Positions 4,337-48,964 of a DNA stretch of 64,000 nt are shown here, piece by piece. A program made the position numbers and the translations under genes. This stretch comes from an uncultured Candidatus Saccharibacteria bacterium. GTDB taxonomy: Bacteria > Patescibacteriota > Minisyncoccia > Phycocordibacterales > UBA918. Under the pieces are notes generated by a model. It worked only from the letters and a program-made list of their open reading frames with translations, was not told where the DNA came from and made no database searches. The stretch lies in the NCBI GenBank assembly GCA_964552045.1, contig CAZKFF010000001.1, positions 64,120-128,119 of the forward strand, read 5' to 3'. Within the stretch, counting starts at the first letter, position 1, and each line of letters starts with the position of its first letter.

Positions 4337-6613
4337 TTATTTGGCGACAGTGACCGCCTCCTCAAACTTTACCGACAGCAGTTTCGAGACCCCGTCGCCA
4401 CCCATAGTAACGCCGTAGAGTATGCCGGCGCGACTCATGGTCTCGCGGTTGTGCGTAATGAGGATAAGCTGCGACTTCTCCGCAAGCGCCTCGATCATGT
4501 CGCCGTAGCGCCGCGAATTTGCCTCATCAAGTGCCGCATCGGTCTCATCAAGAATGATGAACAGAGGGGGGTTGACCTGGCTCATGGCGAAAATAAGCGC
4601 GATGGAAGTAAGTGCCCGCTCCCCTCCGGAAAGCATATCCAAGCCCCGCACGCGCTTGTTGGGAAGTTTGACGTCAAGCTCGATCCCTTCCTGTACCAGC
4701 TCATCCTCTTCCCCCGCTGCTGGAGCCGTTTCTTCCTCACCTTCTTCAAGTTCATCGTTCTGTTTGCGGATCTTCGGCTTCACACGGAGGAGTTTTGCCT
4801 CACCGCCCCCGAACATCAGCGCGAAGAACCGGTTGAACTCAGCTCCGATCTTTTCAATGCCGGCGACAAACTCGCTATTGAGCGAAGCAGTGAGTTCCGC
4901 GATGAGTTCCTCGAGCTTTGTGATGGAGGCTTCCAGATCGGCTATTTCCCGAACCAGGAATTCATCACGGCCTTTCACTTCCTTGTATTCCTTCTCGACA
5001 TCCTGATCAACGCCGCCAAGCTCTTCAAGGCGTATCTTGAGCTTCTCAAGCTCATGCCGGCGATCCTTCTGCACCTGCCGATCTTCGCTGACTATCTCTT
5101 TGGTACCGACCGGCTTCCCATCCTTCTCTATCTCAAGAGTGAAATATTTTGATGCGCCGCTGCCGATCAGTGCCACCGCCTCCTGCAGTTCCCGTTTGAA
5201 TTCATTGCGGTCACGTTCAAGCGCACCCAATTCTGCATCAATGCGGGAGATGAGATTTTCGCATTCGCGCTGCTCTCCGATGATACGGAACACTTCCCGC
5301 TCGGCATCCCGGCTCTCCGATTGCTCTGCCTCAATGGACCGCCGTATCTCTTCATATGCGGAGGTCAGTTCTGACTCCTCTTTCTCAATATGGACTATGC
5401 GGCTTTCGCATTCCTGTTGTTCCACCTCCAGATCCTGAAGCTCCTTTTCCTCATCCTTGGTGCTCCCGGCAGCAGACCCGGACGCATGCTGCAGCAGTTT
5501 CCGCAACATATGCACCATATCGGCAAACGACCGACGCAGAAAATGGAGGTCTTCACTTGCTGCCGCCTTCTGTGCGGCCACCTCGATCGCATCGAGTACT
5601 TTTTTGAATTCACTGCCCGGAACGGGAGCAACCTCTTCCTGCGCATGTTTCTCTTTCATCTGGGTAATGCGGCGCTTCAGGAAGAGCACCTGTCCCTCCA
5701 CCGTCCCGCTCTTGCGCAACAGTTCCTGGCGCTTCTTGCGCACAGCCGATATCTTTTCTTCAAGGTCCATCAGCGTCTTGCTCTTCTCGTCATTCTCGCT
5801 TGCAGCGAGCACTGACTTTGCTTTGCCCAGTTCCTGGGTAAGCGCGTGGAGCTTCTGCGTCGGCTCATCCTTCTGTGCGGTAAGCCTGTCGTGATGGAAT
5901 GCTATATACGTGTCCTCACGTTTGAGATATTCCGCATACACTGCCGTCAACTCCTGCCGCAGCTGCAAGGCACGCTCTATCTTCTTCAATTGCCGCTCCA
6001 AAAACTGCAGATGTGGCGCGACCTCGCGGCGCAGCGACTGCACCCGCCCAACGTTTTCACGGGTTTTCTCCAGTTTCCTTTCTGCCTCGTTCTTCTTGTA
6101 TTGATATACCTTCAGCCCCAAAGCATCCTCGATCATTTCTCTGCGCTCCTGGTTTGAAGCTGAAAGGATGCGGTCCGCCTCACCCTGGGAAATGATATGG
6201 TGGCCTGTTGAACCAATATTTGCTGCAGCGAGCAGCTCCTGAACGTCTTTCAGGCGGACCTTCGAGCTATTGATTGCATACTCATTGGTACCGTCGCGGT
6301 TGACCGTACGTTCAATGAGGATCTCATCGAAATCCATCTGGAACACTCTTTGTGTGTTGTCGAGGACCACACTGACCTGCGCACGGTTGCCGCGTGAGAC
6401 GCTGTCCGAGCCGTTGAATATGAGGTCCTCACCTCTCTTGCCGCGCATCGATTTTATGGATTGCTCACCCAATACAAAGCGAAACGCTTCAGCGACATTT
6501 GACTTGCCAGAACCATTTGGACCCACGATCGCAGTTATGGGCGCACTGAATTCAAGCTCGCTCTTCTTAGCAAATGATTTGAAACCACTGATTGTGAGGT
6601 GTTTAAGATACAT
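4337..6613 (-). CDS. smc: chromosome segregation protein SMC (short form, 758 aa)
   Basis: N-terminal Walker A FKSF...GPNGSGKSN. Long coiled-coil middle. C-terminal signature LSGGERALTSIALIFA and Walker B LFIILDETDAALD. Confidence 0.85.
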   Translation of the reverse strand: MYLKHLTISGFKSFAKKSELEFSAPITAIVGPNGSGKSNVAEAFRFVLGEQSIKSMRGKRGEDLIFNGSDSVSRGNRAQVSVVLDNTQRVFQMDFDEILIERTVNRDGTNEYAINSSKVRLKDVQELLAAANIGSTGHHIISQGEADRILSASNQERREMIEDALGLKVYQYKKNEAERKLEKTRENVGRVQSLRREVAPHLQFLERQLKKIERALQLRQELTAVYAEYLKREDTYIAFHHDRLTAQKDEPTQKLHALTQELGKAKSVLAASENDEKSKTLMDLEEKISAVRKKRQELLRKSGTVEGQVLFLKRRITQMKEKHAQEEVAPVPGSEFKKVLDAIEVAAQKAAASEDLHFLRRSFADMVHMLRKLLQHASGSAAGSTKDEEKELQDLEVEQQECESRIVHIEKEESELTSAYEEIRRSIEAEQSESRDAEREVFRIIGEQRECENLISRIDAELGALERDRNEFKRELQEAVALIGSGASKYFTLEIEKDGKPVGTKEIVSEDRQVQKDRRHELEKLKIRLEELGGVDQDVEKEYKEVKGRDEFLVREIADLEASITKLEELIAELTASLNSEFVAGIEKIGAEFNRFFALMFGGGEAKLLRVKPKIRKQNDELEEGEEETAPAAGEEDELVQEGIELDVKLPNKRVRGLDMLSGGERALTSIALIFAMSQVNPPLFIILDETDAALDEANSRRYGDMIEALAEKSQLILITHNRETMSRAGILYGVTMGGDGVSKLLSVKFEEAVTVAK

Positions 6614-6633
6614 TGCAGCTGGTCCGCTCCACC

Positions 6634-7497
6634 TTAATTGACAAAGATGATATACGCATCGTCAAGGTCGATCTCATCATTGATCCAATTGTATGCTCCC
6701 TGCGTGTAATAGGAACTCTGGGTGTAGTAAGACGTCTGGGTGTAGTAGGATGTCTGCGCATAATAATTTCCCTGGATGTAGTACGAGGTCTGCGCATAAT
6801 ATGAAGTCTGCGTGTAGTACGAGGTCTGCATATAGTACGAAGACTGCATGTAGTATGAACTCTGTACATAGTACGAACCCTGGGCATAGTACCCGGATTG
6901 TGAGTAGTACCCGCTTTGGCTGTAGTAGCCTGATTGCGAGTAGTACCCACTTTGGCTGTAGTACCCGCTCTGACCATAGTAGCCGCTCTGCCGATAGTAT
7001 CCTGACTGTGAGTAATACCCGCTCTGGCCGTAACCCGCATACGCAACCGGCAGGAACGAATCGTCTTCAAGGTTAAGCTCTTCTTCCCCGCATACATCGG
7101 TGTAGTTCCCGTTCCCTTCAGACTCCATGTTCTGGACAATGATGACATCCCTGGTTTCGCCATTGCATTCAAAATCAGAGAAATACCAATATCCGTAGTT
7201 GCTTTTATCTCCGAGTGGGTCTTTGTTTATTTCAGGCAAGAACGGAGCAAGTTCGTCATCGATCGCCTCCCCTACGCCTATCTCTACCCCGTCGCTGAAT
7301 TCAGGGTATTCACCGTTCGCTTCTTTGTAGAGGCGAACCCCGAGCTTGAGCTGTTCAAGGTCATTCACCCGCGCTGTATCACGCGCTTCTTTCCGTGCGT
7401 TGCTGAAAACAGTGAAGGCAAGCACTGCCAGAGTAATGATGATGCCGACAACAGTCATCACTTCAACAAGTGTAAAACCTGTTCTTCTCATTAGCAC
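6634..7497 (-). CDS. type IV pilin-like protein with C-terminal Tyr-rich pentapeptide repeat
   Basis: N-terminal class III (prepilin) signal RRTGFTLVEVMTVVGIIITLAVLAF. Conserved pilin-like core shared with the neighbouring gene. About 23 tandem copies of S-G/S/T-YY-x-Q. Confidence 0.75.
   Translation of the reverse strand: MLMRRTGFTLVEVMTVVGIIITLAVLAFTVFSNARKEARDTARVNDLEQLKLGVRLYKEANGEYPEFSDGVEIGVGEAIDDELAPFLPEINKDPLGDKSNYGYWYFSDFECNGETRDVIIVQNMESEGNGNYTDVCGEEELNLEDDSFLPVAYAGYGQSGYYSQSGYYRQSGYYGQSGYYSQSGYYSQSGYYSQSGYYSQSGYYAQGSYYVQSSYYMQSSYYMQTSYYTQTSYYAQTSYYIQGNYYAQTSYYTQTSYYTQSSYYTQGAYNWINDEIDLDDAYIIFVN
6690..7045 (-). repeat. 15-nt periodic coding repeat encoding (S-x-Y-Y-x-Q)n
   Basis: Visible 15-bp periodicity gtagta...ctg..., with synonymous and near-synonymous variation between units. 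Confidence 0.8.
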
Positions 7498-7543: not shown

Positions 7544-8032
7544 TCAGTCCTTCAGTACGATAATGTACGACCCTGACCCTGCCACGGTCGCATCGGGACT
7601 TGCATCTGTACAAACAGTTGCAAAGTTCGCGTTCTTTGAAAGTTCCATGTTGCGGGCAAAAATGACATGCTGGCCGGATTCAGAACAGGTGAAATCAGAA
7701 TCGTACCAGTAGCTGTATTGGGTGCCCTCCGCTGCCCGCTTCGGATCACTGTAGATATTGCCGTTGAAAAGCCGGATATCGTCATCGAGATCACCGCCCA
7801 TCCCGATTTCAACCCCATTATCGAACGATGGGTAATCCCTGTATTTCTCCTTATAGAGCGTGAGGGCGAACTGGATATTGGTCAGATCAGAGACACGTTT
7901 TTCTTCGCGCGTTTTCTGCCGTGCCTGGGACATCGAGGCAAGCACGATGGTGAGTATGATCATGATGAGAGCGATCACAACCGCAAGTTCAACAAGTGTG
8001 AACCCGTCTTTTGTCTTCGCAATCTGTCGCAT
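7544..8032 (-). CDS. type IV pilin-like / pseudopilin protein
   Basis: 162 aa. N-terminal KDGFTLVELAVVIALIMIILTIV (G|FTLVE prepilin cleavage/methylation motif). Core paralogous to the 6634..7497 gene (YP-FxxGVEIG-G...YWY-SDF-C). Confidence 0.75.
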   Translation of the reverse strand: MRQIAKTKDGFTLVELAVVIALIMIILTIVLASMSQARQKTREEKRVSDLTNIQFALTLYKEKYRDYPSFDNGVEIGMGGDLDDDIRLFNGNIYSDPKRAAEGTQYSYWYDSDFTCSESGQHVIFARNMELSKNANFATVCTDASPDATVAGSGSYIIVLKD

Positions 8033-8862: not shown

Positions 8863-9768
8863 CTACTTCCTGCTATTGTTTGCAACAAGCATCGTCACCG
8901 CCTTGGTCACAATGGGCAGAATGTCCTCATAGAAATTGAGATCGAGTATCTCGGCAACCTTGAACCATTTCGCGTCATCAAGGCCACCTTTATTCTCCAA
9001 AGTAAGCTCAGTATATCCGCTTCGGGCGAGGAAATACGTGACCTGCTTCCGCACTTTGCCGAGTTCTGGGTGCGATGCCACGTATTCATTCTTGCCAAGT
9101 TCACCTTCGAGGATAACATCGACGCCGATCTCTTCTTTGATCTCACGCATGGCGCCGGCCTCGACTGTTTCACCCTCCTCGATCTTCCCCTTTGAGAGAG
9201 TCCAGTGTCCGAAGATATCGTGAACCAGAGCCAGATAGATGTCACCATCAGACTCCGAATACACCACAGCACCCGACAGACGTTGTATCGGCATCTTTTC
9301 AAAAGGAATATCCTTCCGCGGCCGTTTGCCCGTCTCATCCTTCCCCGGCTCGCCTATCTCCTTATACACTGCACCGAGCACGCCGTTGACGAACCGGCTG
9401 CTGTTCTCGCCGCCGAACTGTTTTGCAAGTTCTATTGCTTCGTTGATGGCGACCTTCGCAGGCACCTCTTTCCGGTCAGCAAAAAGAAGCTCGTAGAGTC
9501 CCAAGCGCAATATATTTCTATCTACCGGTGAAATACGGTCAATGGGCCACTCGGGAGCAGCCTTTTCGATCACCTGGTCGAGTTCCGGCTGCTTGCCAAG
9601 TACGCCGTCAAGAAGCTTCTCAATAAACGGTGCGTCGGTCTTGTTCGGGGCAAACTCGGATATGTTGCGTTCCAAAACGTCTGCTACGCCCTTCTTTTCA
9701 ATATCATTTAAATCCCACTCAAAAAGTGTCTGAAGAACGATAGACCTGCTTAAATGTCGATTTGCCAT
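8863..9768 (-). CDS. nusB: NusB antitermination factor fused to a C-terminal NUDIX hydrolase domain
   Basis: N-terminal about 140 aa are NusB-like (ends ...RFVNGVLGAVYKE). The C-terminal half carries the Nudix box GKIEEGETVEAGAMREIKEEIGV. Confidence 0.8.
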   Translation of the reverse strand: MANRHLSRSIVLQTLFEWDLNDIEKKGVADVLERNISEFAPNKTDAPFIEKLLDGVLGKQPELDQVIEKAAPEWPIDRISPVDRNILRLGLYELLFADRKEVPAKVAINEAIELAKQFGGENSSRFVNGVLGAVYKEIGEPGKDETGKRPRKDIPFEKMPIQRLSGAVVYSESDGDIYLALVHDIFGHWTLSKGKIEEGETVEAGAMREIKEEIGVDVILEGELGKNEYVASHPELGKVRKQVTYFLARSGYTELTLENKGGLDDAKWFKVAEILDLNFYEDILPIVTKAVTMLVANNSRK

Positions 9769-20059: not shown

Positions 20060-21211
20060 CTAAGAAACCTTTTTTTTTATGACAACAATGTATGCTACGA
20101 AGAGTGCCCAGAGGGTGAGGAGACCGTAGAAGATGAAAGTGAGCACTGGACCGGCTTCAAATCCCGTATAGGGAACTTCCGTCAGGTAAATACTTCCGAC
20201 AACCGGCTTCTGATCGCGCGTCTCAAGAACGATGATCTCGCCCTCTACTTCTACTTCAACTTTACAGGTTCTATCCTTGCTGCCTCGCTCCGCTTCGAGC
20301 GTATAGGTAGTATCCTTTGTTGGACGCAGCTTGATCTCGCCGTCAAGGAAGTCCTTCTTATCCCTGCTTGAGAGATCATCGGTATCAACAAGCGTATTGC
20401 CGTGATTGTCCTTCAGAAGGATGTCGTACGCATTGGTAGTTTCCCACTCTAGCGTTATTTCTTTCCCCCTCTTTATTTTTTTCGCAGAGATGTCGAGATC
20501 ACACTTCGGCGTCTTTGATCCGCCTCCTCCGTATGAACCCTGTGAATAGTACGAACTCTGGCTGTAATTGTTATATGAGCCCTGCGAATAGTAACTGCTC
20601 TGGGAGTAGTAACTGCTTTGAGAATATGACGGCTCATCCACGACTACCTTAGCATTGCAGGTATCGTCATCACCGGTACCTTCGGCGGTGAGCTGGAAGG
20701 TCGTATCGTCTGTAACATGGACAACCTTTGTCCCGTTAGCATTCACTTCGCCAACGCCATTATCAATGGTGACTTTCGTTGCATTCGTGGTCTTCCAGGT
20801 GAGGGTCACATCGCCGCCGCCATTCGGAAGCGAAGATGGAGAGGCGGTAAAGAGATCACAGGATGCATTCGATACATATGACGACTGCGAATAGTACGAA
20901 CTTTGAGAGTAATAAGAACTCTGGGAGTAGTAGGAACTCTGAGAATAGTAATCACTCTGGGAGTAGTAGCTTCCCTGCGAGTAGTAGCTGCTCTGAGAAT
21001 AGTAATCGCTCTGAGAGTAATAAGAACTCTGGGAATAGTAATCGCTCTGAGAATAGTAATCGCTTTGCGAGTAACAACTGCCACAGCTGGTCTGAGCCTC
21101 TGCTGTACCCAGCAAAAGCGGAGAACCGGCGACATAGCTCAGTATCCCGAACACTGCAAAAAATACCAGTGCAGCGATAAGTGTCTTGTTGATTAATGTT
21201 GTCATATACAT
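20060..21211 (-). CDS. sortase-substrate surface protein with Tyr-rich repeats and two Cys-bounded beta-domains
   Basis: Signal peptide MTTLINKTLIAALVFFAVFGILSYVAGS. (S-D/S-YY-S-Q)n repeat blocks. C-terminal sorting signal VPYTG, then the hydrophobic stretch FEAGPVLTFIFYGLLTLWALFVAYIVVI, then KKK. The ORF track extends to 21382, but that start overlaps the upstream gene. Confidence 0.65.
   Translation of the reverse strand: MYMTTLINKTLIAALVFFAVFGILSYVAGSPLLLGTAEAQTSCGSCYSQSDYYSQSDYYSQSSYYSQSDYYSQSSYYSQGSYYSQSDYYSQSSYYSQSSYYSQSSYYSQSSYVSNASCDLFTASPSSLPNGGGDVTLTWKTTNATKVTIDNGVGEVNANGTKVVHVTDDTTFQLTAEGTGDDDTCNAKVVVDEPSYSQSSYYSQSSYYSQGSYNNYSQSSYYSQGSYGGGGSKTPKCDLDISAKKIKRGKEITLEWETTNAYDILLKDNHGNTLVDTDDLSSRDKKDFLDGEIKLRPTKDTTYTLEAERGSKDRTCKVEVEVEGEIIVLETRDQKPVVGSIYLTEVPYTGFEAGPVLTFIFYGLLTLWALFVAYIVVIKKKVS
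20512..20640 (-). repeat. coding repeat (S-S-Y-Y-S-Q)n block 2
   Basis: Second, shorter block of the same pentapeptide repeat: SYSQSSYYSQSSYYSQGSY... Confidence 0.75.
20863..21073 (-). repeat. coding repeat (S-D/S-Y-Y-S-Q)n block 1
   Basis: About 14 tandem 15-nt units. Confidence 0.8.
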
Positions 21212-21253
21212 GTAGTAAATAATATACCGCCCGAATCTCTTCGGATGCCAATA

Positions 21254-21325
21254 GTTGTGCATCGCACAACTGCTCGCATCCAAATTGATAGTGGTTCCGG
21301 ACGCAAGCATGGGTGCTTGCGTCCG
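21254..21325 (-). other. two stable hairpins in the intergenic region between the secreted-protein gene and the sorted-protein gene
   Basis: gttgtgc-atc-gcacaac has a 7-bp stem. ccggacgcaagca-tggg-tgcttgcgtccg has a 12-bp stem at 21298-21325. No clear U-tract. Confidence 0.4.
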
Positions 21326-21332
21326 AAGACCG

Positions 21333-21782
21333 TCAGACCGGCGAGTAGGACCACTCCTCTCCGCCGACCCGTTCCATGACATAGGTGCCGTCCTTCGTGA
21401 TCGCCGGAGTCGAGACCCAGCCGGTGTACTCCGGACAGGTCACATAGACCGCGATCCTGGTGCCGGATGTGACGAACTGGTCGCGGCACTGCGCGTTCTG
21501 CATCGTCGCGATGCGTTCGAACGTGCCGCGCTTGTAACGCAGGTGCACCACCCACTCGTTGGTTCCGTCAGGACGAGTGATGATCCGGTGCTCACGGTCT
21601 GTGAAGCAGACCGTGACCTTGATCGTAGGGTGCACATCGCTCTGCCCATGGTAGTGCGTTTCCGGCACAACCGGACACACGACCTTCTGGGCGCAGTTGT
21701 CAGCGAATGCCGGCGATGCGATCCCGAGCGAGCCGCCAAGCAGCAGTGAAGCAGCAAGGACGGCAGCAGCATACTTGGTCAT
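21333..21782 (-). CDS. secreted hypothetical protein (high-GC gene)
   Basis: Signal peptide MTKYAAAVLAASLLLGGSLGIASPAFA. Four Cys. About 62% GC against about 48% in the neighbours. Confidence 0.5.
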   Translation of the reverse strand: MTKYAAAVLAASLLLGGSLGIASPAFADNCAQKVVCPVVPETHYHGQSDVHPTIKVTVCFTDREHRIITRPDGTNEWVVHLRYKRGTFERIATMQNAQCRDQFVTSGTRIAVYVTCPEYTGWVSTPAITKDGTYVMERVGGEEWSYSPV

Positions 21783-22123: not shown

Positions 22124-22807
22124 TTAGAGCTTTTTGGTCTCAATAAGAGACGCCTCAACGACGAAACGGTCGTCTTTTGAGCCGAAACTGTTGCAGGTTG
22201 CAAGCGTCAGCTTTGCCTTCCCCGGAGTTGCAGGCACAGCGACTTCACTCGCTTTTGCCTTGTACACATTCTGGACGCGATAAATATACTCCGCATCTGC
22301 AGAACGGACGCGGATCGTGTCTCCCCAGACCAGATTCTGGATACCGTTGAAAGCCTGAAAATTCTTGTTGAAGACAGTCGGCAGATAGCTCGAATGCCCG
22401 AGGATGAACATATTGCCCTTGGTCGTAAGATCAGCTGAATCAGGATGGCGCACAGCGCCGGAAAGAAGTGCAGCATCAAGGTCCGCAACTTCATCGGAAT
22501 CCGGGTTGAGTACGGGCACTTCTTTGCCCAGTGAATCGAATATGATGCTTGTCGGCAGCGCTGAGTGCGGTTCTTCTTCAACCACGGCAACTACGCGTTC
22601 TTCTGCTGGCTCTGTGTCCGATTCTTCAATCATCTCCGTATCTGTATCTTCTGTGGAGGCATCAGCTTTGTGCGGCTCAGGATAAAAATCAAGCGCAAAT
22701 AAAAGCCCGTACGTCATGAGCACGACGATGAAGAACACCACGAGAAATGGCGCACGGTTGACCTTTATTTGAGCATAGAGCTCTTCAAACAATTCACGTA
22801 TGTCCAT
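22124..22807 (-). CDS. sortase (transpeptidase) family protein
   Basis: N-terminal TM anchor. Catalytic His context NMFILGHS and the conserved TLxTC block KLTLATCNSF. Confidence 0.75.
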   Translation of the reverse strand: MDIRELFEELYAQIKVNRAPFLVVFFIVVLMTYGLLFALDFYPEPHKADASTEDTDTEMIEESDTEPAEERVVAVVEEEPHSALPTSIIFDSLGKEVPVLNPDSDEVADLDAALLSGAVRHPDSADLTTKGNMFILGHSSYLPTVFNKNFQAFNGIQNLVWGDTIRVRSADAEYIYRVQNVYKAKASEVAVPATPGKAKLTLATCNSFGSKDDRFVVEASLIETKKL

Positions 22808-23038
22808 AAAATAGTCACGACATAATACATTATTTTTGTCAAAAGTCAACCCTTTCCTGTTCAGGTGAAGGTTGACACTAGCTACATAATATGATATGGT
22901 TCATGTGTACTATTCCAATCGGCAATTGGATCTCGTTCTCACTACTTTTGCGTCCTTTTCCCTCAGTGTATGGGGGCTTTTGTGCAATTGCATTGAGGCG
23001 GCGGCGTACGATAACGTTAGTAATAGTTTTTAATTTTT

Positions 23039-30681: not shown

Positions 30682-31833
30682 TTATTGTGAAGCAATTTCG
30701 GTAAACACCTCAATATAGTATTCCCCATCCTGCACATAGATGCGTCCTCCGTCCTGCACCACATGAATATCCGTACCCGGATACAACAGCTGGGTATTCT
30801 GCCACGAACGGTCATCGACCTCTACAACGTAGAGTCCGTCCTCAAGATGCATAAGCACCAGGTCAACGCTGTCGGGAAAGAAGTCGAACCACAGGACTTT
30901 CTTGCCGAGCCGGTCGATGCGGATATCATTGCGGCAGACCCGTTCACCGATGAGCGCGTTTAAATTTGCAATCCCTTTGAACTGCTTCTGCAACGCTTCA
31001 GTGATATGCTTGCCGTACTGTGCGGTGGTCTTCTTCTCTCCCTGGTAGACCACGCAATAATAATACGGGACATCTTCAGGGTTGCCGTTCCAGGAGACAT
31101 ACACTTCTCCATCCTGTTCATAAAGTGACACATCGCGCCATGTGCGCGTAGTGGTCGCGTTCAGCAGATCAATGTACGGTATCGAAGTCGCGTGCTCTGT
31201 ATCGAAGCGGAACGGTTCGATCTCCTCTCCATGGAGCAGCTGGTGCATTTCGGTTGACGATGCGATAAGACTTGCGACATATGCATATTCCGGATTCACC
31301 ACCAGGCTCGACGTTGCTGTAGAGGACGCCAAGCGCAGCTGTGTTGTGCTCGAGGCAAAGTCGAATGCCGTTGTTGTAGCGGCATCAAAGACCACTCCAC
31401 GGCCGTCAAGCGGGTCGCTCCACTGTGTAATGATCCTGATCTGAGGAACCTTCGGCATGTTGAAGCTCGCCACCTCGGTTACAAAGTGCGCATAGACCGG
31501 CAGATTCTTCACCCATGTCTGCACGTTGTTTCCCTGCACATGAAGCCGGTGCACCCCCGCCTCAAGATTTTGGATATACGCAGCCCGCTGGAACACGCGC
31601 ATGTCATGTACCGGTTCGTTATTGACATAGATCTCGGTTGCATCAATATCATTGCGGACATAAAGTCCACCGACACTTTTGATGCTCGTGAGCTCGCTTG
31701 AGAAATCGAAGCGGTACCCGATGGCATAAAAAACAGAGAACGGGACAGCAAACAAGAACAGCGCAAGCGAGAGCAAAAAAACGAAGCGGCGCTTCTTTTG
31801 TGACAGAGGCTTCATTTCGATTGTTGGTGTCAT
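30682..31833 (-). CDS. membrane-anchored extracytoplasmic hypothetical protein, co-transcribed with the glycosyltransferase
   Basis: N-terminal TM RRFVFLLSLALFLFAVPFSVFYAIGY. Its start overlaps the GT2 stop (ATGA). Confidence 0.5.
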   Translation of the reverse strand: MTPTIEMKPLSQKKRRFVFLLSLALFLFAVPFSVFYAIGYRFDFSSELTSIKSVGGLYVRNDIDATEIYVNNEPVHDMRVFQRAAYIQNLEAGVHRLHVQGNNVQTWVKNLPVYAHFVTEVASFNMPKVPQIRIITQWSDPLDGRGVVFDAATTTAFDFASSTTQLRLASSTATSSLVVNPEYAYVASLIASSTEMHQLLHGEEIEPFRFDTEHATSIPYIDLLNATTTRTWRDVSLYEQDGEVYVSWNGNPEDVPYYYCVVYQGEKKTTAQYGKHITEALQKQFKGIANLNALIGERVCRNDIRIDRLGKKVLWFDFFPDSVDLVLMHLEDGLYVVEVDDRSWQNTQLLYPGTDIHVVQDGGRIYVQDGEYYIEVFTEIASQ

Positions 31834-33404
31834 ACGTTGCTTTTACGCGTCTTCGGCGTTACCCAGAAGCCCATGTATTTGCCGAGCATCAGGCGCGTCT
31901 GCGCATCAAGTCCGGGAATGGCGCTGAAGACGATCATGGTCGCCGGGACAAGTACCCACTGTACCGCAAGGACAATGTAACGCAAGCGGCTTTTATCTTT
32001 CGGCCGCGGCGGCAGCATTGTGAGCGAAATAATGGATGATACCACCAGACCGAACATGGCAAGAATGAGAAGGTCGCGGACCATGATCGGCAGATTATAG
32101 GAAAGCACCGTCTGATGGAACTCCTGGGTTCCGAGAAAGATTGGCGCCCAGCCGAGAAGGAAGAGCATGATGGGGTTGGTCACTAAAGACCAATAACCCT
32201 CCGCCTGCTGCAGACCGACAGTGATTCGTTTCCTGAGGGATATGTTCTTGTTCTTCGTGAAATGATAGATGATATAGGCAAAATTCTCTACGCCGTATGT
32301 CCAGCGGCGATGCTGCCTGTAAATATTCTTGATGGTGCCCCACAAGGTCGGCGCTGCATTGGCATCCATAGAGACAGGGTACGAAAGCGGTACCACGTCA
32401 TATTCTCCGTCGTTTGCCATAAGGAGATTCCAAAAGATGCGGGAATCCTCGTTGACCATATTCACCTGCCAGTACCCCACCTCATAGAGCGCCTGGAATG
32501 AAAGCGAATGGGAGGAGAATGTCGCCATGCGTTCCGGCCGCTCCTGCTGTACCATTTCCCAGAATGTCGATGACATAGCAACCACCCGGGCGATCGCAGG
32601 AGCTTCCCAAATATTGTTATTGAAGATAGGTACCGGCTGGAATGAGGTCTTCAGCGGACGCTCTGCAGTCATGAAATGCCAAATGAGGCAATTGAAGTAA
32701 TCCCTATACAGGACGGTATCAATATCGAAGATCGACACCAGTACATGGTTGTACCGTATGCCATGCGGGTCAAGAATTTTGATGCGCGCCTCTTCCGCCG
32801 CATAGGACGCGTTCGAACCTTTTCCGGCCATTTCTCCGGGCACATCTTTCGGGTGCGTGGTCACCAAGAACGAACCGAAAGTGCTCCCCCACTTCTCTTG
32901 CATTGCGCGGGCAACCTGCTGTGCCCCCTCTCCCGCGCGCTCCTCCGCAGCGAGCACGACAATAAGGCTCTTCTTGTCATACTGCACCTGTGCGAGCGAC
33001 TCGATGGTCGCATTGACGATATCCTCCGGCTCTTCATAAAAAGGCAGGATCACCATCTGATAGAGGTGGCCGTATTCAAAGCGCTCGATCATCTGCAGCC
33101 AGTTGAGCGAAAGATGGTACCGGAGGCGCTTCCAGTTGTATCGGAGATGATATGACAGGAACGCGGTCTTCAAGACCCAGTAGATGGCGAAACCGATGAT
33201 GAAATACGCTGCGGCGAACGGCGCATAGTTAGACATGAGAATGACCCCGATGAGCGTTGTCCAGGACGCAAAACCAGGCACTATCTCAAGGAAGCGGTAA
33301 AAACGACGGTCTTCCCCTACCAGTTCAGGAGCACGCCCTACTTTGAAGTCAGAACGCCGGGCATACGGAAGCAGATGCGATGAATCCTCCATAAATAATA
33401 TCAA
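31830..33404 (-). CDS. integral-membrane family-2-like glycosyltransferase (processive synthase-like)
   Basis: 524 aa. Multiple TM segments flank a cytoplasmic catalytic-like domain (VLAAEERAGEG...SIFDIDTV...), which resembles membrane GT2 polysaccharide synthases. Domain call is by resemblance only. Confidence 0.5.
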   Translation of the reverse strand: MILFMEDSSHLLPYARRSDFKVGRAPELVGEDRRFYRFLEIVPGFASWTTLIGVILMSNYAPFAAAYFIIGFAIYWVLKTAFLSYHLRYNWKRLRYHLSLNWLQMIERFEYGHLYQMVILPFYEEPEDIVNATIESLAQVQYDKKSLIVVLAAEERAGEGAQQVARAMQEKWGSTFGSFLVTTHPKDVPGEMAGKGSNASYAAEEARIKILDPHGIRYNHVLVSIFDIDTVLYRDYFNCLIWHFMTAERPLKTSFQPVPIFNNNIWEAPAIARVVAMSSTFWEMVQQERPERMATFSSHSLSFQALYEVGYWQVNMVNEDSRIFWNLLMANDGEYDVVPLSYPVSMDANAAPTLWGTIKNIYRQHRRWTYGVENFAYIIYHFTKNKNISLRKRITVGLQQAEGYWSLVTNPIMLFLLGWAPIFLGTQEFHQTVLSYNLPIMVRDLLILAMFGLVVSSIISLTMLPPRPKDKSRLRYIVLAVQWVLVPATMIVFSAIPGLDAQTRLMLGKYMGFWVTPKTRKSNV

Positions 33405-40524: not shown

Positions 40525-41514
40525 TTAGCGCTCTACGGCGGCCCTAACCGCTGCAATAATGGAATCTGTATCCATGCCGTAATGAGCAATGAGTTCTTCC
40601 GGATCGCCTGATTGCCCGAACTGATCCTCAACACCGACCCTGATGATCCGCTTGGGGGCATGCGCACTGTAGTACTCCGCAATAGCCCCGCCCAATCCTC
40701 CGGCAACCTGATGCTCTTCGACAGTCACAATAAGATCATGAGCTTCCCCGAATTGGTCGAGCGCCGCCGTATCGAGCGGTTTGACCGTCGGCATGTGGAG
40801 CAGAGAGGCGCCGATTCCCTCCTCATTGAGTCGCTGCGCGGCAGACAATGCATTGTGCGCCAAAATCCCTGTGCTGATTATCCCGACTGTTTTTTCGTGA
40901 GCAGGGTTCTTATGGAAAAAAGTGTATGCTTTGCCGATCTCAAAGGGCGAGGACTCAGTTGTCACCACAGGAGATTTATCCCGGGCGATGCGAATATACA
41001 CCGGCCCGTCGTACTCCGCAGCGGCAAGCACCGCCTTCTGTGCCTCATGCACATCGCACGGGGCTATGACCACCATGTTCGGCATTACACGCATGAGTGC
41101 GATGTCCTCTATCGCCTGATGTGTTGCTCCGTCCGGTCCCACAGAGACGCCGGCATGAGCGCCGATGATCTTCACATTGCGGTTGTTGTAAGCAATGGTC
41201 GTTCGCACCTGTTCCCAGCTTCGTCCGGGAGAGAACATCGCATATGAAGCGATAAACGGTATCTTCCCGCAGGCAGCCATGCCCGAAGCTACCGAAGCCA
41301 TGTTCTGCTCGGCGACACCCACCTGCACAAACCGCTCAGGGAACGCCTCTGCAAACAGATTGGTGCGCGTCGATTCTGTGAGATCAGCGCATAAGGCGAC
41401 AACGCGCGCATCCTTTTCTGCCGCCTCTTTCAGACCTGTGCCGTATCCGTCCCGGTTCGGTATTTTTTCTACCTGATCGGTGCATATTCTTTTGTCGAGA
41501 TGATCTGCAAACAT
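40525..41514 (-). CDS. transketolase, C-terminal subunit (split transketolase)
   Basis: Pyrimidine-binding and C-terminal domains. Directly follows the N-terminal subunit gene with a 2-nt gap. Confidence 0.85.
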   Translation of the reverse strand: MFADHLDKRICTDQVEKIPNRDGYGTGLKEAAEKDARVVALCADLTESTRTNLFAEAFPERFVQVGVAEQNMASVASGMAACGKIPFIASYAMFSPGRSWEQVRTTIAYNNRNVKIIGAHAGVSVGPDGATHQAIEDIALMRVMPNMVVIAPCDVHEAQKAVLAAAEYDGPVYIRIARDKSPVVTTESSPFEIGKAYTFFHKNPAHEKTVGIISTGILAHNALSAAQRLNEEGIGASLLHMPTVKPLDTAALDQFGEAHDLIVTVEEHQVAGGLGGAIAEYYSAHAPKRIIRVGVEDQFGQSGDPEELIAHYGMDTDSIIAAVRAAVER

Positions 41515-41516
41515 AC

Positions 41517-42410
41517 TTATGAGTCTGATGGGATTATGGTCCCTCCGAGCGTGCGCAGCCGCTGGAGCGCTATTTTCGCCTGCTCACTTCGCGGCACCCG
41601 GTCTTCCGGTCCCTTGCCCGGAGGATTACCGTGCCATTTGAAGTCGCGCTCGAACACATCCACGCCTTTTGAAGGGATGGTGTTGGCGATGATAACCGAT
41701 GGCTGGGAATAGATCGCCTGTGCTTTTCCGATGGCGTCATTGACCGCACGGATATTGTGTCCGTCCACTTCCTGCACATCGAAATTGAATGATTCAAATT
41801 TTTCCCGCAGCGGCTCGAGCGGCATTACGTCCTTGGTAAAACCGTCTATCTGAATGCCGTTGCGGTCGATGATGACCACGAGATTATGAAGCCCCTCCTT
41901 CCCCGCAAGCATAGCCGCTTCCCATATCTGCCCTTCGTTGAGTTCGCCGTCCCCGCAGATGCAATAGATGAACCGGGAGGTATACGGATTGTCCATGCGC
42001 TGCGCAATGGCCATGCCCACCGCCTGCGAGAGGCCCGAGCCTAAAGGTCCGGAACTCGTTTCGAGGCCCGGAAGCGACTCCCGATGCGGATGCCCCTGCA
42101 GACGCGAACCGAATTTGCGCAGTGTCAGCAGCTCCTCAATGGGAAAATAGCCCGCGTGCGCCATGGTCGCATACAGTACCGGACAGATGTGTCCTGCTGA
42201 AAGTACGAGACGGTCGCGGTCCTCCCAGTCCGGGTTCTTTGGGTCATGCTGCATGACGCTGAAATACAAAAGCGTGAAGATATCTGCCATATCAAGCGGA
42301 CCGGCAGTATGGCCGCTGCCGGCCGCAACCAGCATTTCTATTACGCTCTGACGTATCTCGTTCGCTTTCAATTCGAGCGCTTCTATCTCGGAAGTGGAAA
42401 GATAATGCAT
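41517..42410 (-). CDS. transketolase, N-terminal (TPP-binding) subunit
   Basis: GHTAGPLDMADIFTLLYF and GDGELNEGQIWEAAMLAG are the TPP-binding motifs of the transketolase N-terminal section. Confidence 0.85.
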   Translation of the reverse strand: MHYLSTSEIEALELKANEIRQSVIEMLVAAGSGHTAGPLDMADIFTLLYFSVMQHDPKNPDWEDRDRLVLSAGHICPVLYATMAHAGYFPIEELLTLRKFGSRLQGHPHRESLPGLETSSGPLGSGLSQAVGMAIAQRMDNPYTSRFIYCICGDGELNEGQIWEAAMLAGKEGLHNLVVIIDRNGIQIDGFTKDVMPLEPLREKFESFNFDVQEVDGHNIRAVNDAIGKAQAIYSQPSVIIANTIPSKGVDVFERDFKWHGNPPGKGPEDRVPRSEQAKIALQRLRTLGGTIIPSDS

Positions 42411-42430: not shown

Positions 42431-43576
42431 TTAGGAGAGACCAATGAGGCGTGCGAGCTGTTTATAGGCGGCGGCAGGATCCTTTGCGCGTGCGATCGCT
42501 GAACCGGGAGCAAAACGATTTACTCCCGCGTCGCGCAGACGCACGATAGTGTCCGCATTGACCGCGCCGTCGACTGCGATCTCCAGAGAAGGATGCGCTG
42601 TACGGAGCGCGGACACAGTCGCAATAGTCCGTTCGTCGAACGGCTCCCCTTGGACGCCGACATGCGCAATACCCATCACCTGCACAAAGTCTATCTCCGG
42701 GATATATGGCTCAAGCTCCGCATGCGGAATGTCATTGGTGACCGCAATACCGATTGAGTACCGATGCTCGCGCGCATGCGCGATGCATGCGGTGTATTCC
42801 TCTGTGCTGCCGAAGTGTATGACCACGCGCTTGACTCCCATGGATGCGCACAGGTCTAAAAAACGTTCGGGGTGCACGCACATACAGTCGATCTCAAGAT
42901 CAAATTGTTTTGTATAGCGCTGCAGCTTACCCAATTCTGCCTCGGCATTGGTCACCAGAAATGGCCACGAAGTGTGCGGCACGAATACTCCATCGACGAT
43001 ATCTATCTGGACCGCGTCTGCCGTTCCCGCAAGGGCATCAAGCAGTGTGGTAATTTCCTCAAAGGATGAGGCAGGAAGCGACGGCGCAAGAGCCAGGGAT
43101 GTATTCGGCGCGTGCACGCTGCTCAGCGTCTCGAGTTCCTCTATGCGGCGGTCATATTTCTCTTTTGGCTCATGCGCAGAAGCGAGCCAGAGCGCCACCG
43201 CCTTCTTGGCGGTCTGCTGGTCGAGGAATCGTGCGCCGAGCGACAGCACATTTGCGTCATTGTGCTGCCGTGAAAGCTTCACGATCTCATCACTTCCGCC
43301 GTAATAGACCGCAGCGCGGACGTCATGGAACCGGTTGGCCATCATGGCCTCCCCCTGCCCTGAGCCGCCGAGAATGATCGCCTTGGTCTGAAGCGGCCGC
43401 GCACTTACTTCCCTCGCAGCTTTCGCTATAAAGTCAGTGAAGTCATCCTCCGCATCGTACGCGTATGCGCCGCAGTCAACAACCTCATACCCGAGCTCAT
43501 CTCTGACATAGTCGATGAGCTTGTCTTTGAGTTCGAATCCGGCATGGTCAGAAGCAAAATAAATTGTATCCTCCAT
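42431..43576 (-). CDS. fusion protein: ribose-5-phosphate isomerase B (N-terminal) + ribulose-phosphate 3-epimerase (C-terminal)
   Basis: N-terminus IYFASDHAGFELKDKLIDYVRDELGYEVVDCG...ILGGSGQGEAMMANR is RpiB/LacAB-like. C-terminus IDIVDGVFVPHTSWP...VMGIAHVGVQGEPF is an Rpe TIM barrel. Confidence 0.75.
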   Translation of the reverse strand: MEDTIYFASDHAGFELKDKLIDYVRDELGYEVVDCGAYAYDAEDDFTDFIAKAAREVSARPLQTKAIILGGSGQGEAMMANRFHDVRAAVYYGGSDEIVKLSRQHNDANVLSLGARFLDQQTAKKAVALWLASAHEPKEKYDRRIEELETLSSVHAPNTSLALAPSLPASSFEEITTLLDALAGTADAVQIDIVDGVFVPHTSWPFLVTNAEAELGKLQRYTKQFDLEIDCMCVHPERFLDLCASMGVKRVVIHFGSTEEYTACIAHAREHRYSIGIAVTNDIPHAELEPYIPEIDFVQVMGIAHVGVQGEPFDERTIATVSALRTAHPSLEIAVDGAVNADTIVRLRDAGVNRFAPGSAIARAKDPAAAYKQLARLIGLS

Positions 43577-44706: not shown

Positions 44707-46407
44707 CTACTTCCGCTTTGCGAGCACTGCGAGGATGAAAACCACGCAACACAGCGCGATGCACGCCAGGAAGAACGGGTGCACGAAGAACAAGGGCAGG
44801 CCGGAGATGACCGCAGCCCCGGTAGTACTGCTCTCGATGAAGACAAAAGATGCACAGAGCAAACCGGTACAGAACAGCACGATACACAGTACTTTCAGGG
44901 CAGCAACGGCTGTGTGACGAGTCATCTTTTTACGCACGATCACATACACAAGCAATAACAGAAGCCCGAGGGCAATCGCCCAAAAGAAAGGCCCTGTAGT
45001 GTAGAAAATCCGCTCCGTACTTCCCGACAAGCCTGTGGGCGATAATGGTGCGCCTGCAAGGAAACGGTACGAGCCTTCAACCTGCTGCATCTTCTGAGTC
45101 TTGTGGTCAAACACGGTAACGACAACCGGATAGACTCCGGCTGTGCGAAGCGGTGCTATATGTGCTTCATAGTCTGTCTTGTCCTTGTTGATGCGCAGGA
45201 GGAACGAGAACGTGAGATTCTGATCCACCGGATGCGTGAACGTCACGCGGACGGTCTTCAGATGTTCCGGGAGCTTTTCATATGCTATGCGCAGAAGAAA
45301 CGGTGCATTCGCATCAAGCGTGCCGCCCTGAACCTGTGCGCCATTCTGTATGACTTCGATATCGCTAAACGACAGCGGGAATGCCGGATAATGCTCGGTG
45401 TCACCGCTGGTTGCAATGGCCTGTTGCGCTGCGGCAACCACCGCGCCTGAGGAAATGTTGCCCTGCGTGTCGTACGCAAATACCGTATAGTACTGCGCGT
45501 CATATTTTGAAAGTGCCCGGCTGTCTGAAAAGACTTCGGCATCTCCCTGATACGCGATGAACCCGTCATACGGATCATCCGGATAGAACAAGTGGCTCCG
45601 CACAATGCGCACAAAGGCGAAATCGGGATCGCTTGGGTTCTCCCATGAAAGCTCCACATCATTGCCAGACAGAGCCGCGCGCAAACCGGAGACATTCGAC
45701 GGCGGCGTTATGTCGGGTGCTTCAAGTGTTTTGAATTCTCCTGATGAAAGCGCGTGCCTGCGCCCGTCGCGGTCAAAGCCGAGCAGCTGATAAGAATAGG
45801 TCGTACCGGGCTCCAGATCGGTGATTACAGTCGAGTGGGTATGCTTGAAGAGCTCGTTTGAGACGAACCCGAGTTCATATGCTGCGGTCCTGCCCCAGCG
45901 CAGTTCAAACTGTGCATAGCCTCTTGTCTGCCATTCCACCTGTACGGTTCGGATATCCGGGATGACATCAAAATGGATCAGGTACAGATCGCTTCCACCG
46001 CCTCCATCGTCAGACACAGGCGCAGGTATGTCCAACGTAGTGGTGGAAACTGCCGCTGACGATGACGAGAAGTTTTCGGATGTATCGAAAGCGGTCACAA
46101 AATAGCTGTACAAGGTGTCCGCAGTCAGGCCGGTATCCGCATAGGTGGTCAAAGATGTGGTTGCAATCTGGATTGCATCACGGAAGACCTGGTATCCGCC
46201 AAGCACGGTATCGTCAGTTGCGGCATTCCATGAAAGGTCGATCTGCGAAGAAGCAACCGGCGTTGCGCTTAGTCCTGTCGGAGTCGTGGGCGGATTGGCG
46301 TCCCCCACTATACGCATGCGTACATTGAACTCGTCCGTCTGTGCCTGCGCTGCAAAAACGCAGACGAAGAGAAATACAGCCACATGTATGCAGAGTCTGG
46401 AGATCAT
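44707..46407 (-). CDS. surface protein with fibronectin-type-III-like domains and C-terminal membrane anchor(s)
   Basis: Signal peptide MISRLCIHVAVFLFVCVFAAQA. FN3-like PPTTPTGLSATPVASSQIDLSWNAATDD...YSYFVTAFD. C-terminal FYTTG, then TM, then RKK, then further TM segments. Start overlaps the upstream gene stop. Confidence 0.6.
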   Translation of the reverse strand: MISRLCIHVAVFLFVCVFAAQAQTDEFNVRMRIVGDANPPTTPTGLSATPVASSQIDLSWNAATDDTVLGGYQVFRDAIQIATTSLTTYADTGLTADTLYSYFVTAFDTSENFSSSSAAVSTTTLDIPAPVSDDGGGGSDLYLIHFDVIPDIRTVQVEWQTRGYAQFELRWGRTAAYELGFVSNELFKHTHSTVITDLEPGTTYSYQLLGFDRDGRRHALSSGEFKTLEAPDITPPSNVSGLRAALSGNDVELSWENPSDPDFAFVRIVRSHLFYPDDPYDGFIAYQGDAEVFSDSRALSKYDAQYYTVFAYDTQGNISSGAVVAAAQQAIATSGDTEHYPAFPLSFSDIEVIQNGAQVQGGTLDANAPFLLRIAYEKLPEHLKTVRVTFTHPVDQNLTFSFLLRINKDKTDYEAHIAPLRTAGVYPVVVTVFDHKTQKMQQVEGSYRFLAGAPLSPTGLSGSTERIFYTTGPFFWAIALGLLLLLVYVIVRKKMTRHTAVAALKVLCIVLFCTGLLCASFVFIESSTTGAAVISGLPLFFVHPFFLACIALCCVVFILAVLAKRK

Positions 46408-47165
46408 AAGGGCAGTGCGGTTACTGTTGTTGTGGCAACATACGAGCCGGGCGCCTGGATGACCGACCCCCCCACCCCAACACGGAAGCGGATCGATGTC
46501 GTCGCGCCTGTGGGATGATTGGCGCTTCCGTGAGACGCAATTATTTCAGGTGCGGTAGAAAGACCGTCCCAGCATGCAAATGGCGTTTCTCCGGAGCCGG
46601 TATTGCAGGACGACCCATTGTCCTTAAAGCGCTGCACAACGTCAGCGCCTTCGGGAGTGTAGCCCAAATGCGCGTCAGCTGCGCCAGTTTCGAACGAGAA
46701 GTCCGGATCGCCCTGCGGTGCATAATCTGCGATCGCATCGGGTCCTTTCTGCATAGCCGGACTGTCTGATGCGGCAATGGAAAGCGCATAGCCGGAAGGA
46801 CTGTCGGTGATGACCGTAACAGTGGTCGATCCGTTCGCTATGCCGCCTGACACACCCGGAATCGACGGAGAGAGCGCAATATCCGATGACGCGCTGAGCG
46901 CGATGTATACCTCCTGCATCTGCTGATATCCCGCCTTCAATGCGTAGTTCGTACTCGTGGACACACCGCTTGCAAGTTCTCCCGCAGTGGATTCCAAGAC
47001 ATAATTGGTTGAAGTGGAAAGCCCGCCACTGAAGTTGATGCTGTCGCTCTGGATCTGAAAGTTACTGCTCTCCATCACCTGCGCGCCGGCACAATGAAGG
47101 CTGGCTACGACCAAAAGTGTAGCGATACTTGCTTGAGATAATGGCGAGAATAATTCTCTCCACAT
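46404..47165 (-). CDS. secreted beta-rich protein, paralog A
   Basis: Signal peptide. Shares the blocks DNGSSCNTGSGETPFACW and ATTSIRFRV with the 48278..48964 gene. Confidence 0.55.
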   Translation of the reverse strand: MWRELFSPLSQASIATLLVVASLHCAGAQVMESSNFQIQSDSINFSGGLSTSTNYVLESTAGELASGVSTSTNYALKAGYQQMQEVYIALSASSDIALSPSIPGVSGGIANGSTTVTVITDSPSGYALSIAASDSPAMQKGPDAIADYAPQGDPDFSFETGAADAHLGYTPEGADVVQRFKDNGSSCNTGSGETPFACWDGLSTAPEIIASHGSANHPTGATTSIRFRVGVGGSVIQAPGSYVATTTVTALPL

Positions 47166-47173
47166 GGCACAGG

Positions 47174-48262: not shown

Positions 48263-48277
48263 TAGAATGATTTTATG

Positions 48278-48964
48278 CTAGTTAGTTGTGGCGGTCAACG
48301 TAGCAGTTGCTGTGTAAAATCCGGTTGAAACTGCAGGACTTGGATTGGAAGGCACCAGAACGCGGAAGCCGATTGTGGTTGTTGCTCCTGAAAGCGGTGT
48401 TGCGGTACTTCGACTAATGATCGTTTCTGCTGCGTCATCAGGATCGAGCCAACATGTGTTTGCCGTATCCCCGGAACCAGTATTACATGCAGAGCCATTG
48501 TCTGCGAACGAAGGATCAAGATCAGAAGATGATGAGGCTGCGACCGTATAACCAAACTGTGCATACGTCTCAGCGCCGAAACCATAATCCGGTACGCCGA
48601 CAGCTGTTGGATTGTAGTTTGAGATATATCCTCCGCCGCCATCCTTTGTCATGGCAGTCGTGCTTGAAAATGCGATGGTCATATTATAGCCGGCTGTATT
48701 GTTGGTATTCACGCGGACCGTATACGAACCGTCTGATTGACCTCCAGTGAGACCAGCAATGTTTGGAGACATAACCACATCAGTTGATGTTGCGATGAAG
48801 GCGATCTCAGCAGTGATCTCCTGGGTCACTTCAAATGTATCGGTTGCCTGAGCCAGTCCTACCTGCGGCTCAAGCATGAAGAATGAAGCAAGCGCCAACA
48901 GCGACGCGAGCGTTGCGGCAACCAGTGCGCCAAAGGTTGAATGCCTGATAAGTGTAAGGGTCAT
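48278..48964 (-). CDS. secreted beta-rich protein, paralog B
   Basis: Signal peptide. Conserved blocks DNGSACNTGSGDTANTCW and ATTTIGFRV are shared with paralog A. Confidence 0.55.
   Translation of the reverse strand: MTLTLIRHSTFGALVAATLASLLALASFFMLEPQVGLAQATDTFEVTQEITAEIAFIATSTDVVMSPNIAGLTGGQSDGSYTVRVNTNNTAGYNMTIAFSSTTAMTKDGGGGYISNYNPTAVGVPDYGFGAETYAQFGYTVAASSSSDLDPSFADNGSACNTGSGDTANTCWLDPDDAAETIISRSTATPLSGATTTIGFRVLVPSNPSPAVSTGFYTATATLTATTN

Follow-up and report, generated by a model that had tools for sequence, protein, structure and literature searches.

A tyrosine-rich hexapeptide array expands a loop of a small type IV pilin in an uncultured Candidatus Saccharibacteria bacterium

We analyzed a 64,000-nucleotide stretch of DNA from an uncultured Candidatus Saccharibacteria bacterium (contig CAZKFF010000001.1, positions 64,120 to 128,119; hereafter "the window") and characterized one complete gene within it, a type IV pilin gene on the minus strand (6634..7497) that carries a long tyrosine-rich repeat. 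We found that the loop before the last beta-strand of this pilin is expanded by a portable extracellular low-complexity module, an array of hexapeptides of the pattern YYxQ. Modular pilins are already known; what is new here is that a tyrosine-rich low-complexity array takes the place of a folded domain and sits in an internal loop of a small PilA-like pilin. The best explanation, to which we give a probability of roughly 0.5, is that the array is an adhesive or cohesive loop displayed on a modular pilin.

The open reading frame (ORF) lies exactly where a first-pass annotation, made by a model from the sequence and a list of its ORFs, had placed it and encodes 287 amino acids from a GTG start; using an in-frame ATG two codons further on would give an alternative product of 285 amino acids. 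The product begins with the leader peptide MLMRRTG (7477..7497, minus strand), the last residue of which is Gly-1 of the prepilin cleavage motif, and continues as FTLVEVMTVVGIIITLAVLAF. A short basic leader running up to this glycine, the hydrophobic Phe at +1, Glu at +5 and a helix of about 20 hydrophobic residues together constitute a class III (prepilin) signal, and F8, L10 and E12 are invariant columns in our alignment of the family (alignment A1). The product would presumably be processed by a prepilin peptidase, incorporated into pili and displayed at the surface.

The mature pilin core (residues 8–139; 7081..7476, minus strand) comprises the FTLVE start, the hydrophobic alpha1 helix, a beta-sheet and two conserved cysteines, Cys111 and Cys136. 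AlphaFold2 modeled this core with a predicted local distance difference test score (pLDDT) of ~90, placing a helix at residues 10–61 and strands at 102–111 and 114–122, while the last strand of the protein (DSSP strand 282–285) had a pLDDT of 87. The model has the long alpha1 packed on an antiparallel beta-sheet that is expected of a pilin fold (pLDDT about 87–94). The best PDB matches of the model in Foldseek were type IV pilins, namely C. difficile PilA1 (probability 0.98, with a weak E value of 0.08) and gonococcal pilin, and the family profile matched geopilin, GspG and PilA chains among PDB sequences (E values of 1e-10 to 1e-3), mainly via alpha1. The best NCBIfam match was GspG (TIGR01710; E value 1e-7, 31.9 bits, residues 7–96). 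We rejected membership in this family of type II secretion major pseudopilins, as 31.9 bits falls far short of the equivalog cut-off of 88.85 and the similarity is limited to the N-terminal half. The confident fold, the pilin matches in the PDB and 38% identity to an adjacent paralog bear out the pilin-like core that the first-pass annotation had proposed, and at the level of sequence comparison we regard 6634..7497 as established to be a genuine, conserved member of the pilin family.

Residues 159–266 (6700..7023, minus strand) form an array of 18 in-register hexapeptide units, which we delimited using Tandem Repeats Finder and a table of units and codons. All 18 units of the 108-amino-acid array are perfect instances of [S/T/G][G/S]YYxQ, the first eight reading SGYYxQ and the next ten [S/T/G][S/N]YYxQ; this number of units in register is far beyond chance. 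Tandem Repeats Finder reported a period of 18 nt with super-periods of 36 and 54 nt. The long repeat of Tyr, Ser, Gln, Gly and Thr residues recognized in the first-pass annotation is therefore real, but it had been taken for some 115 amino acids of pentapeptides. By composition the array is 33% Tyr, 23% Ser, 17% Gln, 10% Gly and 8% Thr, and only 1 of its 108 residues is charged (one Arg, with no Asp or Glu), whereas the segments on either side of it are acidic. The lead-in (residues 140–158, ELNLEDDSFLPVAYAGYGQ; 7024..7080, minus strand) combines such an acidic segment with a conserved junction motif, AYAGYGQ, which is kept in P0001, L087, L133 and L165 and also in a non-pilin protein, P0038.

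AlphaFold2 assigned no secondary structure to residues 140–268 and gave them a pLDDT below 30, so the array is predicted to be disordered. A Pfam search of the pilin at E values up to 1 returned N_methyl as the sole match, and the array had no relative in Pfam, NCBIfam, PDB sequences or the searchable literature. Two known repeat architectures were considered and rejected. The six-residue period raised the left-handed beta-helix (Hexapep, PF00132; [LIV]-[GAED]-x2-[STAV]-x), for which there was neither a profile match nor any strand in residues 140–268. Membership in the curli or Fap amyloids was likewise rejected, with no Pfam or NCBIfam match in the pilin and no such domain among the window ORFs scanned. 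Separately, the repeat produces spurious long ORFs that could mislead gene callers, one in another frame (6603..7172, minus strand, 189 amino acids) and one on the opposite strand (6693..7076, plus strand, 127 amino acids).

The first-pass annotation had read the repeat as a C-terminal tail. This proved incorrect: another 21 residues, ending in AYIIFVN, follow the array and match the C-terminal strand of every one of the 11 aligned family members, repeat-free ones included. This exit segment and conserved last beta-strand occupy residues 267–287 (GAYNWINDEIDLDDAYIIFVN; 6637..6699, minus strand). Because the conserved last strand lies beyond it, the array is, by sequence alignment, an insertion in a loop, located between the second conserved cysteine (Cys136) and the last strand. 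Insert-free family members have about 6–14 residues from the second invariant cysteine to the last strand, and the same loop is enlarged to about 145 residues in the repeat pilin. The closest comparison stands directly upstream: a paralogous pilin of 162 amino acids (7544..8032, minus strand; 38% identity over 136 amino acids, BLASTP E value 2e-33) has no insertion, a loop of ~14 residues between cysteine and last strand, and the C-terminus SYIIVLKD. The repeat-free homologs P0006–P0009 have similar C-termini.

Other relatives fill the same loop differently. P0002–P0005 have a cysteine-containing domain of ~100 residues there, with short YYxQ-like stretches alongside it in P0002–P0004. In the AlphaFold2 model of P0002, the insert is all-beta (residues 187–285, pLDDT 60–77), the YYxQ stretch is disordered (pLDDT <30) and the last strand is back in the core. 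Since the P0002 loop takes up both an all-beta domain and a short array with the last strand still rejoining the core, the models point to the loop before the last strand as a tolerated display site. This conserved site of a small PilA-like pilin is empty in some relatives and in others filled by an Ig-like domain or by a tyrosine-rich array.

An assembly or frameshift artefact, or the remnant of a decaying gene, is a very improbable source of the array. Such an origin would agree with the contigs of two other runs, which break within the SGYYSQ block (the most homogeneous part of the array, where this is expected of short-read graphs), and with the absence of the exact 287- and 285-amino-acid products from the gene index even though the neighbors are present in the protein collection. 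Against it, an independently assembled Logan contig (L084, run SRR11843834) covers the array in full and matches the window from 7478 to 4301 without a single mismatch, which speaks against the assembly artefact that the first-pass annotation had named as a refutation. The frame also stays open through the conserved C-terminal strand, and complete syntenic orthologs (L133 and L165) and the homolog P0001 share the architecture.

We compared three syntenic orthologous loci (L087, L133 and L165), each with the order NusB-NUDIX, RNase III, short pilin, repeat pilin and SMC. The flanking proteins are 85–93% identical across these loci and the two pilins only 52–59%. Nonsynonymous divergence (dN) was 0.05–0.11 for the flanks (NusB-NUDIX, RNase III and SMC) and 0.34–0.41 for the pilin cores, such that both paralogs change 4–7 times faster; synonymous divergence (dS) was saturated in this comparison, and we give no dN/dS ratio. 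The fast dN is consistent with surface-exposed pilins being under selection that is either diversifying or relaxed. Despite this divergence, L133 and L165 keep the junction AYAGYGQSGYY, 15–16 units and the exit ...YIIF[V/I]D, whereas L087 reaches its contig edge three units into the array. P0001 has the same architecture with 11 units, and unit number among orthologs therefore ranges from 11 to 18.

At the DNA level, the units of the pilin array are diverse. All six Ser codons are used, with switches between AGY and TCN, and Tyr and Gln each draw on their two codons. Within the array the YY and Q residues never change, while the codons are randomized. To place this diversity on a scale, we recoded the array peptide 5,000 times using the codon usage of the window. 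The mean DNA identity between units was 0.618, compared to 0.610 ± 0.010 under random recoding, and the longest exact DNA repeat was 17 nt, compared to 14.7 ± 2.8 nt. The synonymous diversification noted in the first-pass annotation is thus confirmed, but its suggestion of selection for array stability is not supported, and we rejected selection for DNA-level diversification because the units are no more diverse than neutral recoding would make them; the test gives no evidence of extra selection for DNA stability. Since this diversity amounts to neutral saturation, it indicates that the pilin array is old and has been held by selection on the peptide. We also rejected a slipped-strand contingency locus at the pilin gene, its longest exact repeat being just 17 nt.

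The YYxQ module extends beyond this pilin. A phmmer search with the array as query, covering 1.84 billion representative proteins, yielded only 109 matches at E values up to 1e-3. At least three in-register units were present in 24 of 129 proteins (the phmmer matches together with earlier homologs and window proteins), and the pooled consensus, over 189 units, was [S/G/A][S/T/A/G]YY[S/A/G/T][Q>E]. A degenerate DNA pattern of four units had 73 matching stretches among 241 million metagenome records. In viral contigs, the 25 matches of four in-register YY-x-Q units were all AT-rich simple repeats or unrelated PYYNQ stretches, with no true module, and a scan of genome contigs with the family alignment, which relied on generic pilin N-terminal patterns, returned 80 mostly unrelated pilin loci, 0 of them with YYxQ arrays. 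Pilin-type carriers of the module are P0011, P0014, two adjacent minor pilins in L153 and L167, and L184, which is pseudopilin-like and lacks Glu+5. P0014 has a YYxQ tail and is encoded (L088, 7001..7744) within a pilB-pilT-pilC-pilD operon that also contains related pilins. The adjacent minor pilins of L153 (238 and 221 amino acids, identical in L167) have tails of 6 and 7 units, each ending in GYK. In non-pilin carriers, the module stands beside Bact_surface_Ig-like, PG_binding_1, Laminin_G_3, PKD, Peptidase_S8 and Hint domains. The YYxQ array is a portable, lineage-restricted, extracellular low-complexity module. The earlier remark that such repeats were not known on pilins holds to the extent that Pfam, NCBIfam, PDB sequences and searchable papers gave no match; it does not make the array unique, as several other pilin-like proteins that look unrelated, and non-pilin surface proteins as well, carry the module.

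The window itself encodes a second YYxQ protein (20060..21205, also delimited as 20060..21382, minus strand), which we found by a six-frame motif scan with translation and which has orthologs in P0093, L127 and L139. It starts with an N-terminal signal or anchor, after which come 10 units of S[D/S]YYSQ (20885..21064), then a predicted all-beta domain, ~5 further units (about 20560..20650), a second predicted all-beta domain and a C-terminal signal. The C-terminus reads VPYTG followed by a hydrophobic stretch and KKK (MPYTG at this place in L158), which looks like a non-canonical sortase sorting signal of the LPXTG type. A sortase gene (22124..22849, minus strand; PF04203 Sortase, 67.2 bits, TLATC motif) lies 0.7 kb from the gene for the second YYxQ protein, and this locus is syntenic in L127 and L139. 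The mean unit identity of the 10-unit array is 0.741 where 0.631 is expected, making it more homogeneous than the pilin array; it was duplicated or homogenized more recently.

Several further features of individual carriers were observed. Tail-type arrays of minor pilins and small secreted proteins (L153, P0014, P0011, L169 and L184) nearly always end in lysine (...GYK, ...SYK, ...SYLK or ...GGSGK), and a signal for processing, cross-linking or pairing is one possible role of this conserved Lys at the terminus. A family of ~255 amino acids (P0016, P0017, L125, L137, L145, L146, L159 and L183) consists of a signal peptide, a YYxQ array and a well-conserved domain (…FVIDHPLDPxNKLLFHSFVESPDVKNIYDG…), with no Pfam match in the two members scanned (P0016 and L183). 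In P0010 and L123, arrays of at least 27 units, with an 18-residue super-repeat in P0010, directly precede a Hint/pretoxin-HINT autoprocessing domain, which suggests that the array could be released or transferred via protein splicing-type cleavage. Finally, L162 and L180 (65–66% guanine plus cytosine, GC) have [S/T]GYYPQ arrays in small proteins rich in Gly/Trp or Gly/Tyr; these are probably an unrelated, convergent tyrosine-rich repeat.

Among known systems, the repeat pilin is most readily compared to modular pilins, of which more than 1,200 proteins in 264 architectures have been described, many of them in bacteria belonging to the Candidate Phyla Radiation (CPR); they are widespread and common in monoderms (PMC8179133). 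As in S. sanguinis PilB and PilC, CofB and GspK (Raynaud et al. 2021, PMC8179133), an N-terminal pilin module is joined to an extra module that is common to non-pilin proteins, here a sortase substrate, a subtilase and PG_binding, lectin-, PKD- and Hint-domain proteins. The YYxQ module differs in being low-complexity and predicted to be disordered, where the extra module of those pilins is a folded vWA, lectin or similar domain, and in being inserted before the last strand rather than fused through a linker at the C-terminus. An extra domain inserted within the pilin beta-sheet is known from GspK (PMC8179133). The core of the repeat pilin resembles short pilins of the PilA/GspG type, not large tip pilins. 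A novel CPR pilus system described in a 2026 preprint is a different one that uses donor-strand exchange, and the searchable literature offered nothing relevant on tyrosine-rich CPR pilins or YYxQ peptide strings.

The first-pass annotation had also likened the repeat to prion-like domains. In the SYGQ-rich domains of FUS, EWS and TAF15 and the oligopeptide repeats of Sup35, Tyr amid small polar residues is thought to drive multivalent self-association, and degenerate SYGQQS hexapeptide repeats have been described in EWS. The comparison is reasonable for composition, as Ser, Gly, Tyr and Gln, together with Thr, make up most of the YYxQ array and charge is almost absent from it; the pLDDT of the array is below 30. 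It does not extend to spacing: the array has a strict hexad with invariant YY and Q, in contrast to the irregular spacing in FUS and Sup35. YYxQ arrays are, moreover, extracellular and bacterial, are far richer in Tyr (33%), and show no sequence homology to these proteins and no PDB matches.

Short tandem units of variable copy number between an anchor and domains are also found in the Ser-Asp repeats of Sdr and Clf proteins, in serine-rich repeat proteins and in Pro/Thr linkers; unlike these stalks of Gram-positive adhesins, which have acidic or glycosylated Ser, the YYxQ array is aromatic and uncharged and is also present where no domain needs projecting, as in the loop of the repeat pilin and in pilin tails. 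The hypervariable central region of flagellin is similar in that conserved polymerization ends flank a variable surface insertion, but flagellin belongs to another filament family and its inserts are folded. Curli CsgA and FapC share extracellular repeats rich in Gln, Ser and Gly and a proposed adhesive or matrix role; their repeats, however, are ~19–23 residues long, form strand-turn-strand units, are not tyrosine-rich and come with dedicated secretion and nucleator genes, and the array showed no similarity to them in Pfam or PDB sequence searches.

CPR bacteria (Patescibacteria) are believed to rely on attaching to other cells, and type IV pili are their best-supported attachment organelles. 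We propose that the array of the repeat pilin is an adhesive or cohesive loop. As the globular domain anchors the loop at either end, the array should point outward, projecting from the pilus surface on polymerization. It would act as a multivalent "sticker," with 36 tyrosines per subunit plus the hydrogen-bonding groups of Gln and Ser/Thr making many weak contacts. Candidate partners would be other YYxQ arrays, which the same cell carries on at least one further surface protein and which could mediate pilus bundling or contact between pilus and cell surface, or glycans in the wall of a host or partner cell. The module could also serve multidomain proteins as a stalk or linker. To our knowledge these bacteria lack an outer-membrane secretin, and without one, a size limit on pilin cargo would be lifted. 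If the array is adhesive or self-associating, it would offer a simple, testable mechanism of pilus-mediated attachment or aggregation in an uncultured lineage, and tyrosine-rich low-complexity domains would gain an extracellular example from bacteria.

Several observations weigh against this proposal. The first-pass annotation had called the N-terminus that of a bona fide type IV pilin, and while the G|FTLVE motif is present, N_methyl (PF07963) scored 15.6 bits on residues 3–27, below its cut-off of 21.2, and TIGR02532 scored 10.7 bits against a cut-off of 16.3. Given that the paralog (26.1 bits) and the homolog P0002 (31.6 bits) pass the N_methyl cut-off, we judge from the sequence comparison that the prepilin motif is present in the repeat pilin in a weakly scoring copy. 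No prepilin peptidase or pilus assembly genes were found among the larger ORFs of the window scanned against Pfam. The repeat pilin may be a major subunit that coats the filament or a minor one, either being possible. The low pLDDT of the array may stem from the shallow alignment of 11 sequences rather than from true disorder, and the perfect six-residue register, which persists although synonymous sites are saturated, is a hint that the structure is regular or the ligand periodic. Moreover, many carriers have the array between domains or right after the signal anchor, where an inert linker would be placed.

This last observation leads to the alternative of an inert, flexible array that is no more than a spacer or "entropic bristle," a stalk, domain separator, or padding or shield of the filament (for example to hide from phage or prevent sticking) without specific binding. 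We consider this unlikely. In its favor, multidomain carriers have arrays after the signal anchor and before the first domain or between domains of the Ig-like or Cys-rich kind, and the pilin homologs P0002 and P0004 have them beside the Ig-like insert; the arrays are predicted to be disordered by AlphaFold2, and unit number varies from 11 to 18 among orthologs. Inert linkers, however, are usually rich in Pro, Thr, Ser and Gly and avoid aromatics, whereas the array is one third Tyr with YY and Q invariant over 189 units. There is also no domain to space out in the pilin of the window, in P0001, L133 and L165 or in the tail-type pilins, and perfect register persists despite synonymous saturation. 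The strict hexad and the invariant YY and Q thus disfavor a purely inert linker and keep a structured alternative open. Such a structure would be a regular tyrosine ladder (a beta-solenoid, cross-beta sheet or coiled fiber), formed alone or by paired arrays and missed by AlphaFold2, that serves as a rigid spike or a co-assembled fiber. Its appeal comes from the same register, from the DNA super-periods of 36 and 54 nt and the 18-residue super-repeat of P0010, from the adjacent minor pilins of L153 and L167 with 6- and 7-unit tails that both run to GYK, and from the need for a loop chain to go out and return, which suits an antiparallel arrangement. It is nevertheless improbable, more so than the inert spacer, as AlphaFold2 gave no secondary structure and a pLDDT below 30, no Pfam hexapeptide-repeat or other repeat family matched, no PDB sequence is related and array length varies freely among orthologs.

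Only slightly more probable than the tyrosine ladder is a scaffold for post-translational modification, in which the modified form would be the functional one, through dense O-glycosylation of Ser, Thr and Tyr or oxidative cross-linking of Tyr (dityrosine or 3,4-dihydroxyphenylalanine type). O-glycosylation is frequent in pilins, some S-layer proteins are known to be O-glycosylated on Tyr, and cross-linking is common in structural proteins rich in tyrosine; each unit has two or three hydroxyl residues next to YY, and the module is confined to secreted and surface proteins. Neither YYxQ gene of the window, however, is adjoined by a glycosyltransferase, tyrosinase or peroxidase gene, and the sole glycosyltransferase found (family 2, 31830..33404) is separated by ~24 kb from the pilin gene, with the second YYxQ gene ~10 kb away from it. 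Were the adhesive loop that we favor to prove a mere linker, its aromatic chemistry would still be unusual for one, and the definition of a family would be warranted, ending its annotation as "hypothetical."

Speculatively, the adhesive loop could be part of something larger. Parcubacteria-like bacteria might use YYxQ arrays as a previously undescribed code for self-association outside the cell, in which tyrosine-ladder or prion-like arrays on pilins (loops on the shaft and equal-length tails on minor pilins at the tip) recognize arrays on sortase-anchored or secreted proteins by reversible cross-beta or pi-stacking. We regard this as doubtful, at a level similar to that of the inert spacer. 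If true, pili, cell surface and matrix proteins would stick to one another, or to a periodic glycan of the host cell wall, like velcro, and the arrays would be a bacterial extracellular counterpart of eukaryotic low-complexity domains of the FUS type.

The remainder of the window (52% GC) encodes housekeeping genes, including SMC, RNase III, DNA polymerase III alpha, threonyl- and phenylalanyl-tRNA synthetases, a release factor, a split transketolase, an RpiB-Rpe fusion and GAPDH. Synteny with the genome bins of L023 (Kaiserbacteria) and L066 (Parcubacteria), at 38–67% amino-acid identity, extends over the region at ~34–45 kb and suggests that the organism is Parcubacteria/Patescibacteria-like. 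Some of these genes have unusual arrangements: a NusB-NUDIX hydrolase fusion (8863..9768, minus strand) is also present in L087 and L165; RpiB is fused to ribulose-phosphate 3-epimerase (42431..43576, minus strand), and the two halves match ~1 kb apart in the Kaiserbacteria locus L023; and separate genes (40525..42410) encode the N- and C-terminal parts of transketolase. A giant ORF (51600..62690, minus strand; 3,696 amino acids) has beta-propeller-type matches (Lactonase 7-bladed propeller, EPTP and DUF6242) and is probably a very large surface protein; it is followed by several ORFs at 44707..51485 that have fn3, WxL-interacting PGBD and PD40 matches.

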